A stretch of 64,000 nucleotides of DNA from Octopus vulgaris (GCA_951406725.2 OX597820.1:128402001-128466000), one strand, 5' to 3'. Positions 6,378 through 53,600 are shown, counted from the stretch's first letter. Numbers and translations: made by a program. The notes: a model not told the origin generated them from the letters alone.

Positions 6378-6452
6378 CTATGTACTAATTAGTTTCACTT
6401 GTTAATATTTACGTATATAGATACGTAAACATCTGCAAGATCATCAGCATAG
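6378..6452 (-). ncRNA. Type-I hammerhead ribozyme motif (Penelope/retrozyme type)
   Basis: Minus strand: CTATG-CTGATGA-T-CTTG..ATGTTTACGTAT/ATACGTAAATAT..CAAG-T-GAAA-CTAATTAG-TA^CATAG; helix I CTATG/CATAG, palindromic helix III ACTAATTAGT; 10.1-11.1 pair is U.U. Confidence 0.7.
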
Positions 6453-6989
6453 TCTGTCGTTTACGAAACACAATTTCTAGAACTAGATACAGGGCGCTCG
6501 ACTGAAATCCAGCATTGTATAAAGTTCCACAAATTATATTTATGTGTATCTTTCAAATGCCTTCACTTTGGCGTGCTGAGATCGGAAATTACTCTGCAGT
6601 TATTGAACTACAGCAGTCAATTTACCGGTTAGAGAACATCTTTGTATTTATAAATATATATATATATATATATATATATATATATATATATATATATATA
6701 TGAGAGAGAGAGAGTGGGGGAGCAGATAAGAGAAGTGATGTGCGAGAGTAGATATTTATTCCATACGTTTATAGCTGTTTCAAAATCTTGTTAGTTATAA
6801 AAGAGATGCAACATCACTATAAACGCACAAAATATATATATACAGATACGTATGGGTATATGCACATATGTATATACATACATATGGGAACATAAACAAA
6901 CCAGCATCGGTCAAGTGGTGTGCCGCGGACAGACACACACACCTATATATGTGTGTGTGTGTTTATATAAATATCATAAAGGTCAGGAA

Positions 6990-47680: not shown

Positions 47681-50600
47681 GTATCCTTTGTTCATATATT
47701 TCTTTTTAAGAAAACATTCAGAAACAAAAATAAGAATTACACGGCTGTAATCCAGTGAATGTACAGAGATTATTTATTTGCTTGTCTGCAAATTCACGTG
47801 GTTTACTCACAGCATTTTATTTAGTTAGTTAGTTAGTTGTTTATTGTATAAACCTCGGAAAGATTTTCGTTAACAAATGAATGAATCCATGAAAGTCGTT
47901 GCTGGATAGCACTGAGTTAGCTCTGACCAAATGGACTGGAGATCAAAGACATTGCAACCATGACCATCCAGCCCTTTTGGATAGGCACAAGCCTGTGTAG
48001 TAAGAAGTTTACTTCCCAACTTCATAAGTTCAGGTTCAGTCCCATTGCATGGCACCTTAGACAAGTGTCTTCCATTATAGCCCCAGACTAACCAAAGACT
48101 TAGGAATGGATTTGGTAGATAGAAACTGGAAGAATCTTGTTGTATACATACATACATACATACATACATGTATATATGTATGTGTTTGTGTTTGGCCCCC
48201 ACCACTGTTTGACAACAGGAAAAAAACCAGTGTTGGTTTGTTTGCATCCCATAACTTAGTAGTTCAGCAAAAGAGACCAATAGAATATTTGCCAAGCATA
48301 AAAATAAGTACTGGGGCCAATTTGTTCACCTAAATGCTTCACGGCAGTGACCCAGTATGGCTGCTGTCCAATAAAGGAAAAAAGTAAAAGACAAAAAATA
48401 AAAGAAAATTACCCAGGATTACCTGGTCTAATATGTCCTTTTTTAGTAGGGTGTGATAACAGAATTAGTTTGGTATTTCTAATCGGTCAAACAACCAAGT
48501 AGAGGCTCTTAATGTCAAAAATCTATTATAAAACCTGTGTTAACTGTAAATCAGAAAAACTGAATATATTCTCAAAATAACTGTACTGCTTTATTTTGAA
48601 ATTAGACACTTAAAGATGGTCACCTTTTATATTCCAGCAGCTTAATAAATAATAAGTAATGTGAAACCTAATTAGCATTTAATGGGAGGAAATTTCAGTT
48701 TCTTTTTCTTTTCTCTTGTGCAGTAGTTTTGAATTGGAAAAAGAAAAATGAGAGAAAATTCATAAAACCTACATGATGGTCAATATGTATATGTATGTAT
48801 GTATGTAAGTATGTATATATGCATTTATATGTATATATACATACAAGGTGTACCTCTAAAAAAATGCATACACATTTTAACAGTTAATAGCTCAATTTTC
48901 ATTTCTTTTTAGATTTAATCCATTAATAATAATGAAGGGAACCAGACTAATCCATAATGAAGGGAACTAATCCATAATGAAGGGAACCAGACTAATCTTT
49001 GAACAAAGGAAACTTACCTTAAAGTGCTACTAGATGTTTGCAAATGTAGCTGAGGTGCGAAAACAGATTAGGAGAGAGTTTCAAACAGATCCATCAATGA
49101 AACTGTTCATCACTCAAATTAGAAATAAATTTGAATCAGACGGAACTATTCAGAATGCCCTGAAGAAACATTCCGAAATACTGCAATCATCAAGAGTCCC
49201 ACAAAACGAGAAAGGATACAAGAAACATATTGTCTGAGTTCATGAAATTCTGTGCAGCAGTTGTGTCATTAGACAGGAATTACAAAATCAAACATCTATT
49301 GTATTTTGAAATGCTGTCAACGGGAAAGTTACATTTGAAGAATAATCTATGCTCTCAATAAAGACGATCCAGAACAAAGTGCAGAGTTTAGCAAGTGGTA
49401 CTTGGTAAGATGTGGAGAAGATGTACACTTCCCAACAGATTGTTTGGAAGGATGAGGCTTCATTTAAATGAAATGGTCCAATTAGCCACCACAAGTGCAC
49501 CTACTGGGGTCCTGAGAATGTACATATTATGGAGGAACATCATGTTAATTAACCAGGAGTTACAATATAGGGCAGGTTATCATCAAAAGGATTCATTGGA
49601 CCATATTTATATGCCAGAACTGTGACTGGTCAAATTTACTTGAACTTGTGACAATCTATCATGCCATGCAAGATAGGGTACAACCAGCAACATAGGGTAT
49701 AATCACACTACCTTGATGAGATGTTGCCAAACGGGTGGACTGGATGAAGTGGTTCAGTAGAATACTGTCCTTGTTCACTAGATCTCACAGCATTGAACTT
49801 TTTTTTTTACCAGATTACTTAAAAGAAAGTTTATGGTACAAAACCGGAAGTACTTGATGAATTGAGGACAGCTATTGAGCAAGAATGTGCACATGGATTG
49901 AATGAAATATTTCTTGATAGTTGCAGTTCCAATGCTTCATGTTGTCAGCAGTGATTGGATAACTATGATCATCAGTTTGAAAACAAGAGTTCATAAGAAA
50001 ATTATATTCTGTCAGTAGATTCTATTAAAATTTGAAAATAAAATGTATTTTAATAAACACTGACTTTATAATCATTCAATGTGTATAAACATTTTGTGGG
50101 TAACAACCCATATATATATATTTATGTATATATAAAACTTTATTTTTGTGTTAAGACTACCATTGGTTTCATGTTAGGAAAATGTCTTAACAATTTTTTA
50201 AGCTGATCACATGGAGAAATTGTAATGATATCTTCTTAAAATGAAACCAATGGTAGCCTTAATACACATAGAAATGATTTTTAACCACCAATGCAGTGTT
50301 GAGCACTTATTCTCATTGTTTGACATTTATATATATACATACATACATATATATATATATATATATGAGTATGAAAGCATGTATTGATGTATGTATTTGT
50401 ATATATGTATCTATGAGTGTATGTGTGTGCATATTATATATATATATATATATATCATTATTTAACGTCATATATATATATATATGTATGTGTATATATA
50501 TATACACACACATACATATATATATATACACATACATACATATATATATATATGTATATATATATACACATACACATATATATATATATATATACACATA

Positions 50601-53600
50601 CACATATATATATATATATATATATCATCATCATCATCATCATCATCATCATCATCATTTAACGTCTGCTAAACGATGATGATGATGATGGTGATATATA
50701 TATATATATATATATATATATATATATATATATATATATATATATATATATATAAACAATTGCAGCGTGGAAGGTGTTTGTAAGCCATTTAAGAAACACA
50801 CAAAAGCCGTTCGATTCACTTCAACATTTAAGTTTAATTTGCCAAAATATTTTCGTCGCTTTAAGACCACGACATGTTCACTGACAAAAATCCGTGCTAC
50901 ATCTGAGAAAGTAACTGAATCTAACGGTTTTTGTGTATTTCTTAAATGGCTTACAAACACCTTCTACGCTGCAATTGTTTTCGTTCCAGCACATGATCTC
51001 AGATCAAATCACTTGCTATGCGAGTACATCCCTATATGGCACGTAAAAAGCACCATCCGATCGTGGCCGTTGCCAGCCTCGCCTGGCCACCGTGCTGGTG
51101 GCACGAAAAAAGCACCATCCGTCCGTGGCCGTTTGCCAGCTTCGTCTGGCACCTGTGCGGGTGGCACGTAAAAAGCACCCACTACACTCACGGAGTGGTT
51201 GGCGTTAGGAAGGGCATCCAGCCGTAGAAACACTGCCAGATCAGACTGGGCCTGATGCAGCCTTCTGGCCTCACAGACCCCCAGTTGAACCGTCCAACCC
51301 ATGCTAGCATGGAAAGCGGATGCTAAATGATGATGATGATGATGATGATATATATATATATATATATATATATATATATATATATATATATATATATATA
51401 TATATATATATATATATATATATATATATATATATATATATATATATATATATATATATATATATATATATATATATATATACATACATACATACACACA
51501 TATATATATATATACACACACAGAGCACGATGGGTAAACTGTCGCCATTTTATATTTTTAATTTTGCACATGTGCATTGTTTGTTTTTGATTTTGTTAAA
51601 TCCATTGTATAGTGGGGGTCAGTTGAACACTGTCTGTGAGAAAAACGGCAACATGACGCAATTCCCTCTGCCAGAAATTTGGAAATAACATGCTGTACTG
51701 CTTGGCACACATGCCGGAAGCTCCAATATGAACATTTCTAAGTGTCTGGGTATCAGTCTGAAGACGGTGCAATGTGGGGACGTACTGAGAGTGATAAAAA
51801 TCAAACATCTAGTCAACATCATGGTGTTTGGAATGATCACTAGTGATGGCGATGTTATGCCTCCATTCATCTTCCCATATGGCCTCAGACACAACATGGA
51901 GGTCTACATCAAGTGCTTGGAGAAGGTAATGCTGTCCTGGGTCAAGAGGGTGGGTGCTGGAAGATCTTATGTCTGGCAACAGGGAACTGCACCATGCCAC
52001 ACAAGCAGGAGAACCCAGTCACAGCTGTCAGACAATTTCTGCAACTACATCACCCTAACATCTGGCCACCTAACTTCCCAGACTGCAATTCACTTCATTA
52101 CTATGAGTGGGGCGCATTTGAGCGAGAGACCAACAAAATTCCTTGTAACACCAAAGATGAACCGAAGGCAAGGATTATGGTAGCATTCACCAACTTAAAC
52201 AAGAAGACTGTCCAGAAAAGTTGCAGGAGATTCCAAAGTCTTCTGGAGGCTGTGACTGAAGCCAATGGTGATTTTATTGAATAAATTTACTCTTTAGTAT
52301 TTCAAGATATTTTTATGCAACTTTGGTAAATATATCTGTTAAAATGAGATGTCAGTGTTTTTCTTGACCCCTCTTTATTTATTCTGTCTCTCTGCCTCTA
52401 CCTCTTTGTCTTCTCTCCCTAGGTGACTGGTGTTCAGCCAAGCCTGACCTTTCTTTTTGTTTCGGCCACTGTCCATGCAACATCTATATTTCTCCCTGTG
52501 CTGTGAATTCTTGTATCCCTGCTGTAAGTCTTTACTTCCACACACGCCAGCTTAATTTAATTTGCCCTTAGTTGAAAGACACCTGTTGTTATGTGCTGTT
52601 ATTTGTATTTGTGTAACATTCTCTGTTTTTTTTTTTCTGTCCTTGTTTTTGTATACATTTTCTGCTTTCTTCCAAGGAATCTAATGCTCTCAGTTTAGTT
52701 TTTCCTTGGGGCTGTCCAGAGTAATCTCAAGTATAACCAATTGAAATTGCAAACATAATATGGAACTCGACCGAGGAAAGAAAACTCCAAATGATCCGTC
52801 CTTGTTTTCTTTGTATCATCTATCTGGATGTTTTGTTGTCTTTTTGTATCACCTGTCTGGATGTTTTGCATTCTTGTTTCATTTTGTATTTTTTATGTAT
52901 AACATATATATATATATATATATATATATATATATATATATATATATATATGTGTGTGTGTGTGTGTGTGTGTGTGTTTTTGTGTGAATACATCAGAAGT
53001 AGTCCTTGCTTAAGTATTTCGATGTATGTTTCAGAGTTTATGGCTCCAACACATTTGATCAGCTCAGAACAACCATTGCTGATGACAGCTCCCCATACCA
53101 ATACAAAGATACCATATATATATATGACACTTTGAAAAAGTCTCTTCTATGATATCCCCGGGCTAACAAAGCCTTGTGAGTGGATTTGGTAAATGGAAAC
53201 TGAAAGGTCATTGTGTGTGTGAGTGCATGTGTATGTCTTACTGTTCCTTGTAACCATCATCCAATCAGTATCCTTCACTTCTAATCTTATGTGAAAGCAT
53301 ATACAGTCATGAGGCAATATTGCATTGCTTGGAAACAGGTGTGTGTCAGTGACAGGAAAGGCATACAGCCATTGAAAATCTGCCAGAATGAATTTAGTTT
53401 GAAGCAATGTAGCATGGAAAAGTTGACGTTAAAACAATGATGGTGATGACGATATGTGTGTGTGTGTGTGTGTATACAACTTATAGAAGTGTCCAGTTAG
53501 ATTTAACTTGTTCATGTATAGTAAAATGTGGAAATACCTTCATTTGCAAATAATTACCTTGGGAGTGAGATTCTCCATATAACCAATGCATATGAAAATA

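Follow-up and report, generated by a model that had tools for sequence, protein, structure and literature searches.

Short hammerhead-bearing units in octopus DNA as probable Penelope-like element insertions, one from an abundant family with a predicted G3-C8 core

The window examined here, 64,000 nucleotides (64 kb) of Octopus vulgaris DNA (GCA_951406725.2 OX597820.1:128402001-128466000), is microsatellite-rich animal DNA that contains the RPS10 gene, a fragment of a Penelope-like element (PLE), and seven short units bearing hammerhead ribozyme motifs, some intact-looking and some broken. We refer to these sites by approximate position as 6.4k, 9.0k, 9.4k, 18.3k, 23.8k, 50.2k and 50.8k; their coordinates are collected in Table 1. 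Our reading is that the seven are probably short insertion products of PLEs from several unrelated families, and that one of them, 50.8k, represents an abundant family with a predicted hammerhead whose core pair 3-8 is G-C.

Table 1. Positions of the hammerhead-bearing units, their parts and the neighbouring PLE fragment, counted from the first letter of the window.
Feature	Position	Strand	Description
PLE fragment	2420..3375	-	5'-truncated, frameshifted; reverse transcriptase (RT) thumb, Cys-rich linker, GIY-YIG-type endonuclease; in (TAA)n
Hammerhead 6.4k	6378..6452	-	C3-G8 core 6447-6441, GAAA 6396-6393, palindromic helix III, predicted cut after 6383 (GUA)
Hammerhead 9.0k	8989..9043	+	core 8994-9000, palindrome with central G, predicted cut after 9038 (AUC)
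Fold-back unit 9.4k	9224..9604	-	arms 9224-9324 and 9494-9604, 89% identical, 170-nt loop
Hammerhead 9.4k	9369..9451	-	7-bp helix I, G10.1-C11.1, palindromic helix III, predicted cut after 9376 (GUC)
Palindrome 18.3k	18024..18419	.	arms 94% alike; RPS10 intron; broken hammerhead in each arm
Palindrome 23.8k	23724..23883	.	RPS10 intron; broken hammerhead at turn, core 23802-23808 on +
Palindrome 50.2k	50139..50274	.	old, 76% alike; both arms retain GAAA and palindrome ACCAATGGT
Fold-back copy 50.8k	50755..50979	-	near-complete sense unit ~50915 to 50755 plus inverted 68-nt arm (63/68 identical)
Swapped-core hammerhead 50.8k	50838..50888	-	helix I 7 bp: 50888-50882 with 50844-50838
Core of 50.8k		-	G3 at 50881, C8 at 50876, extra nucleotide 50874
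Helix II of 50.8k		-	50873-50869 with 50859-50855, closed by G10.1-C11.1; GAAA 50854-50851
Helix III and cut of 50.8k		-	palindrome AAUAUU; predicted cut after 50845 (U17)
One-sided tail of 50.8k	50980..51036	+	family sequence continuing right arm only; end approximate

Canonical motifs were sought with a descriptor combining helix I, CUGANGA, GAAA, a palindromic helix III and UH in type-I order. The window gave three matches, at 6447-6383(-), 8994-9038(+) and 9444-9376(-), whereas 200 block-wise dinucleotide shuffles averaged 0.025 with helix I of at least 5 bp and 0.24 at the most permissive of five settings; the sites were already known when the descriptor was written, and the shuffle figures are not an exact probability. 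None of the 200 shuffles reached three matches at any setting. Thus, the three canonical motifs are not compositional noise, and the initial annotation was right to expect a motif frequency above that of dinucleotide-shuffled DNA and to credit the best copies (6.4k, 9.0k and 9.4k) with a paired helix I and a palindromic helix III. It put the density at about one hammerhead per 10 kb; the window has four intact-looking motifs, three of them inside 3.1 kb. No hammerhead family was reported by Rfam in three targeted scans, nor among 150 of the 159 whole-window rows; the matches in the window scans were hairpin and microsatellite microRNA models.

Helix I, which closes the cut site, measures 5, 5, 7 and 7 bp at 6.4k, 9.0k, 9.4k and 50.8k, respectively, and is favoured by the local fold in three of these four candidates (pair probability 0.56-1.0). 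A palindromic helix III is present at the same four sites and at 50.2k, and 18.3k and the + arm of 23.8k each have one with a single mismatch; its predicted dimer energy is -6.4 to -9.9 kcal/mol for the three canonical sites. Both a G10.1-C11.1 pair and an extra nucleotide after A9 are found at 18.3k and 50.8k, and the pair without the extra nucleotide at 9.4k; neither 6.4k, weakened by U-U at 10.1-11.1, nor 9.0k conforms. The weakness of 9.0k is a nearly lost helix II and a helix I pair probability of 0.02 in the local fold. By these measures 9.4k is the best canonical hammerhead (z -3.9; helix I pair probabilities 0.96-1.0). It is located in the loop of a fold-back that we read as a truncated sense copy with an inverted, shorter 3' copy. 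Sequence words of this fold-back were found in 20 listed runs, at half or more of the words in four of the 20; the 16 runs with under half were not counted as copy-number evidence, and the listed matching runs included no RNA dataset. The other two canonical units have no inverted arm: that at 6.4k spans about 440 nt between the (TA)n runs 6154-6209 and 6654-6701, and that at 9.0k about 210 nt with microsatellites on both sides. As the initial annotation had it, the units are otherwise unrelated and fall into several families; no pair of the seven aligns at E<0.05.

The hammerheads at 18.3k, 23.8k and 50.2k are broken. The first, proposed as one of four main sites together with the three canonical ones, retains at 18253-18297(+) its core (at 18259), an extra G, a 6-bp helix II and GAAA; helix I and the palindrome are broken, the mirror copy is altered at core positions 9 and 12, and a partial motif of this kind occurs in 24 of 200 shuffles. 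At 23.8k the 5' core strand is missing from the mirror arm and helix I is broken; at 50.2k the 5' core strand is damaged and helix I is again broken. These two sites, earlier described as degenerate, are broken in both arms. The palindrome kept at 50.2k (ACCAATGGT) has the very sequence of helix III in Hydra-1_Obim, a published hammerhead (PMC8557442). Because both copies extend into the hammerhead, these three motifs would be locked in a duplex in any transcript. The palindromes at 18.3k and 23.8k lie in introns of RPS10 (~17900-28210, minus strand; Pfam S10_plectin), and in both the copy on the RPS10 sense strand has the more damaged core. This would be expected if selection opposes cutting of the host pre-mRNA, with two cases only. 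An RPS10 intron also holds a SNORD94-like Rfam match, 19876-20006(-), which at 37.6 bits is below the gathering score and is a possible C/D small nucleolar RNA.

The units share a layout. In every one the hammerhead points toward a T-rich stretch, with another 70-200 nt to the end of the unit, which in most cases is at (TA)n. Six of the seven predicted cut sites lie at most 200 nt from a (TA)n run of at least five repeats, 18.3k being the sole exception, vs 17% of background positions (binomial p 1.7e-4, with the 200-nt threshold picked after the fact). Masked self-BLAST placed an inverted, 5'-truncated copy beside the hammerhead unit in five of the seven, matching the earlier count of sites in or between inverted repeats. 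At 9.4k and 50.8k a shorter 3'-end copy is joined head to head, and the hammerhead lies in the loop because the inverted copy is the shorter one. A one-sided tail is clear at 50.8k and suggested at 50.2k.

The 50.8k fold-back adjoins the (TA)n run 50694-50753. Its hammerhead core came to light when other Watson-Crick pairs were allowed at core positions 3 and 8. Three alternatives were tried. The initial annotation had called 50840-50885(-) degenerate; in fact the site is not decayed, and a G3/C8 swap is accompanied there by helix I, helix II, GAAA, the palindrome and UU. The 3-8 pair is complementary yet swapped, and departs from the literal CUGANGA consensus. One match to the full G3-C8 layout arose in 3 of 200 shuffles, and core plus helix II alone in 52 of 200. 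Descriptors for U3-A8 and A3-U8 had no match over the window; a non-pairing 3-8 control had one weak match in the window and matches in 16 of 200 shuffles.

To this site belongs an abundant family. Contigs from four of 24 listed runs were aligned to 50757-51010 at 80% likeness, yielding 15,117 (X1), 9,955 (X2), 6,834 (X3) and 1,274 (X20) aligned contigs under organism labels A, B, C and A, three labels in all; the X1 figure covers about 76% of the run, and X20 is only guessed to be RNA, so that its 1,274 contigs are no evidence of expression. The ratio of summed to single-contig depth at 50874 is about 30,000 in X1, X2 and X3. Inflated by overlapping contigs, it is no copy number: the family counts thousands to tens of thousands, and 30,000 is only an upper order of magnitude. 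At a threshold of at least 10% there were 13 variant rows, none of them in 50875-50881 or 50845-50859. Since no core letter varies at that level, G3-C8 is the state of the family among core-spanning contigs. Four variant rows do fall in the motif. The extra nucleotide, 50874, is G in 98-99.6% of depth; 50869 differs in 92-98% and gives helix II a fifth pair; 50842 differs in 65-81% and turns a helix I wobble into a Watson-Crick pair; 50863, in loop II, differs in 58-76%. Thus, the family folds better than the window copy, its letters improving both helices I and II. It is likely, judging from sequence, that the octopus 50.8k family carries a predicted hammerhead with a G3-C8 core, a form that standard searches would miss.

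The same contigs bear on the fold-back. Depth in X1 was 2.9-3.6 million over 50775-50855, 1.3 million at the core and 0.12-0.19 million at 50901-50918, the window copy's own junction, which is 3-6% of arm depth. Among 15 joints listed (46 further joints exist) eight change strand, and inversion points elsewhere, at joints 50829/50894 and 50831/50904, are seen in one or two contigs per run in X1 and X2. Four strand-changing joints were discarded as explicable by arm-switching on a palindromic reference, and two more, 50813/50946 and 50815/50963, were left uninterpreted. With its own junction rare in the family and other junctions occurring, the fold-back is specific to this copy. The right arm continues about 57 nt beyond the left arm's mirror point, as shown by depth at 50973-51008 and by loose ends at 51006/51007 that agree at 0.72-0.92. 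The 5' ends of the family cluster just upstream of the hammerhead, and depth does not step where the cut is predicted. Pattern scans for the family in metagenome and viral contigs returned no match, nor did a literature search for Twinkle, the name of an octopus short interspersed nuclear element (SINE).

We propose the following course of events, its insertion steps, mobilising enzyme and cleavage being modelled on published PLE work. A PLE protein would nick (TA)n or other AT-rich DNA. Reverse transcription would then begin internally, from either of two start points lying 70-200 nt downstream of the hammerhead, leaving a one-sided tail, and would halt soon past the hammerhead. A second, usually shorter copy would often be laid head to head with the first, producing the fold-back. 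The hammerheads would be ribozymes of the pseudo-long terminal repeat (pLTR), their predicted cleavage being weak and dependent on dimer formation or a protein. Those at 6.4k, 9.0k, 9.4k and 50.8k, in a loop or armless, may still be able to fold; those at 18.3k, 23.8k and 50.2k, which would be locked in the duplex of the palindrome arms, have decayed. If the fold-back is made at insertion, the hairpin is an insertion scar and not a mobile RNA. The link to PLEs drawn by the initial annotation is well supported by the hammerhead consensus, the inverted truncated copies, the tail and the (TA)n setting. A compensated 3-8 core, in turn, would mean that selection maintained the pairing in the master element.

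Several observations weigh against this proposal. Within the window, none of the seven units is connected to a PLE open reading frame (ORF), and an autonomous partner did not turn up. Six of the seven units start within about 60 nt upstream of the core, as read from arm alignments, target-site duplications are unreadable within (TA)n, and the tail measures about 57 nt vs a published 30-40 nt. The helix III dimer of 50.8k is very weak (-0.2 kcal/mol). Helix changes in this one family, scored as per-site variants, are one-sided only, two of them keeping or adding pairs, with no compensatory double change, and a C3-G8 subfamily could be under-counted if contigs clip at the core. Finally, the depth of 50.8k is flat over 50775-50855 and drops steeply by 50905, and loose ends at 50889-50915 enter mixed or microsatellite sequence (24 of 743 rows).

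These last two points speak for the strongest alternative, that the abundant families, above all 50.8k, stem from SINE-like, non-coding pLTR derivatives of about 230 nt that use PLE proteins in trans, with inversion at insertion. It retains the non-autonomy proposed by the initial annotation but does not make the hairpin the unit. Level depth with an abrupt 5' drop, 20-40 nt upstream of helix I, suits a short non-coding template at least as well as it suits a long one that was truncated, and loose ends that run into heterogeneous or (TA)n sequence fit it too, as does a head-to-tail joint of 50861 to 50757 seen in single contigs of two runs. Animal retrozymes have moreover been argued to be non-autonomous PLE derivatives, many of them monomers (bioRxiv 10.64898/2026.07.22.740005). 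On the other hand, a 5'-pLTR transcript of an autonomous element, primed internally, would leave the same short unit with a defined 5' end, to judge from PMC11167929, a microsatellite within the 3' untranslated region would likewise break contigs, and letters specific to the window at 50863-50899 can clip alignments and so steepen the fall in depth. As an account of the abundant families at large we find the short master rather unlikely. For the 50.8k family alone it falls just short of an even chance, and the choice between a pLTR part of a coding element and a short non-coding master as its template is close to even. It is doubtful, if a shade less so than the general account, that the octopus harbours thousands to tens of thousands of short non-coding PLE parasites with a working natural G3-C8, U17 hammerhead.

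A second alternative concerns 50.8k only: its motif might be a chance likeness in an ordinary repeat, or the dead descendant of a hammerhead whose core letters no longer matter. Core plus helix II did turn up in about a quarter of shuffles, Rfam matched no hammerhead, the site has U17 and a weak helix III, and a dead motif could ride along because cleavage is not required for PLE insertion in vitro. Yet the full layout was rare in shuffles (3 of 200), the family letters improve both helices and add an extra G as in PLE hammerheads, the motif takes the same position in its unit as the 9.4k hammerhead, and drift is unlikely to have produced a pair of exactly complementary changes at positions 3 and 8. 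We therefore regard this alternative, and chance likeness taken by itself, as improbable; that 50.8k is a true hammerhead descendant but inactive has a considerable chance, somewhat below even.

Two further alternatives are very improbable. Monomers of retrozymes lacking long terminal repeats (non-LTR retrozymes), spreading through circular RNAs from double self-cleavage of tandem repeats, would account for type-I hammerheads in AT-rich units of 200-400 nt, and molluscan retrozymes exist (PMC7229834), but self-BLAST found no hammerhead-bearing direct or tandem repeat in the window, the units end away from the cut site, the family lacks a depth step at 50845, and inverted arms and tails are features of PLE insertion. 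That the hairpin with its ribozyme is itself a mobile RNA, or an element of the miniature inverted-repeat transposable element (MITE) kind with terminal inverted repeats, would suit the long arms at five of the seven sites and the long stable hairpins into which the units fold, but two intact hammerheads are armless, the arm geometry differs in every unit, one arm carries a tail, the hammerhead would be duplex-locked in three units, and the 50.8k junction is rare in the family beside other junctions in single contigs.

PLE insertion thus remains our preferred reading, and the fragment at 2420-3375 shows past PLE activity in the window. It is 89% identical to an Octopus vulgaris protein. Among six full-length relatives, RVT_1 was found in two and GIY-YIG in one, both weakly and below the Pfam cut-offs, and Pfam gave no match on the thumb fragment itself. 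The Cys-rich linker appears to fit the CX2-5CxxC motif described for Neptune elements (PMC8557442). A 37-nt inverted pair, 2151-2187 and 4002-4038, flanks the fragment, each copy beside (TAA)n; it may be the true 3' end of the PLE beyond an internal microsatellite. When five of 32 proteins, representing one PLE lineage, were searched against the window with tblastn, they matched only 2497-3375. The initial annotation had taken this machinery for the mobiliser of the units. The fragment is real, and shows nothing of having moved the seven: it sits in (TAA)n, descriptor scans found no hammerhead behind it, and nothing ties it to the units. PLEs of the Hydra clade would fit better than its lineage, given their (TA)n target and an Octopus member that has the helix III of 50.2k.

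Other elements in the window may be recorded here. An AT-rich element at 59536-60190, partly tandem and partly inverted and ending at (TA)n, has a PLE-like layout, and no hammerhead was located in it. Further elements with inverted repeats but no hammerhead, which by eye resemble MITEs, occupy 26287-26743, 28569-28777 (just upstream of RPS10) and 42276-42817, and six other local inverted repeats inspected by eye in the window showed no hammerhead. The AT-rich segment 5125-6150, between two (TA)n runs, is likely a mitochondrial insertion; ARAGORN finds in it a mitochondrial-type tRNA-Asn at ~5808-5871. By eye, an RT-like retroelement region extends over 10043-16192, with a direct duplication of 1.16 kb (10043-11204 and 15044-16192, 98% identical), and a decayed coding-like stretch at ~31900-33480(+) is probably a transposon gene.

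The bulk of what we describe is expected PLE debris; the family with the swapped core is new unless it is already in print. If the prediction is true, a G3-C8 family is invisible to searches based on CUGANGA and to Rfam, and adds a third natural core type and a large, uncounted share of ribozymes; if natural G3-C8 is family-wide under all three organism labels, animal hammerhead counts are too low. No tertiary contact in the hammerhead core has been studied more than the 3-8 pair; G3-C8 is known to us only as a laboratory rescue with partial activity, and published survey descriptors exclude it. The family would also offer a natural test of whether PLE hammerheads need to cut at all.

Units of this kind have a precedent. 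What the initial annotation took for a large unannotated population was described in 2014, when dispersed single minimal hammerheads and opposite-strand pairs 100-700 bp apart were recognized as truncated PLEs (PMC4209133). In that paper Cervera and de la Pena reported that animal genomes each contain single minimal hammerheads by the thousand, heterogeneous in sequence and including a U3-A8 family, and a PLE consensus of U-rich flank, core, optional extra nucleotide, G10.1-C11.1, palindrome, UH and AU-rich flank. The window units resemble these in their type-I order, short palindromic helix III and flanks, at some sites in G10.1-C11.1 and the extra nucleotide, and in comprising many unrelated families within a genome, mostly single with some opposite-strand pairs. 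They differ in the far longer helix II of 6.4k and 9.4k, where 44-50 nt separate the core strands, and in the core of 50.8k: all 56 representatives of Fig. S3 in PMC4209133 are C3-G8 or U3-A8, and none is G3-C8. Passages of Perreault name only U3-A8 as natural covariation, and our literature search, which covered few subscription papers, found no report of a natural G3-C8 hammerhead and no octopus or cephalopod hammerhead study under those terms.

Non-LTR retrozymes (PMC7229834; bioRxiv 10.64898/2026.07.22.740005) are likewise short, non-coding, AT-rich, type-I and PLE-related; the window copies, unlike theirs, are inverted rather than direct and form no tandem array. Closer are the Hydra-clade PLEs of Craig et al. 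2021 (PMC8557442, Files S1-S2), with a (TA)n target and a hammerhead near the 3' end. Among them is Hydra-1_Obim, by which an Octopus PLE with both features was already published, and which shares the helix III palindrome of 50.2k and also has an extra G and U17. In this clade helix III consists of 3-4 bp palindromes with 1-3 central letters, and U17 occurs in 10 of 26 rows. Unlike these elements, no window unit has a Hydra-clade ORF beside it, five of six window motif queries had no match in the PMC8557442 supplement, and all 34 rows of its File S2 start with CUGA, from which the G3-C8 of 50.8k departs.

Inverted 5'-truncated copies and a one-sided tail are stated hallmarks of PLEs (PMC8557442), the tail being the stretch between two RT starts (PMC11167929), and PLE cleavage is described as weak, in need of a dimer or a protein, and dispensable for insertion in vitro (PMC4209133, PMC11167929). 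Poseidon of Anolis (PMC8557442 Fig. 2; PMC11167929) shows the inverted truncated copy, the one-sided tail and the AT-rich target seen here; the window units differ in having no ORF and a tail of about 57 nt. G3-C8 has been stated to be more active away from C17, with data not shown in the source. In the laboratory, a C3G/G8C double mutant partly restores cleavage in a PLE hammerhead, and the Poseidon hammerhead tolerates this engineered change (PMC8557442; PMC11167929). In 50.8k the same swap is natural and family-wide.

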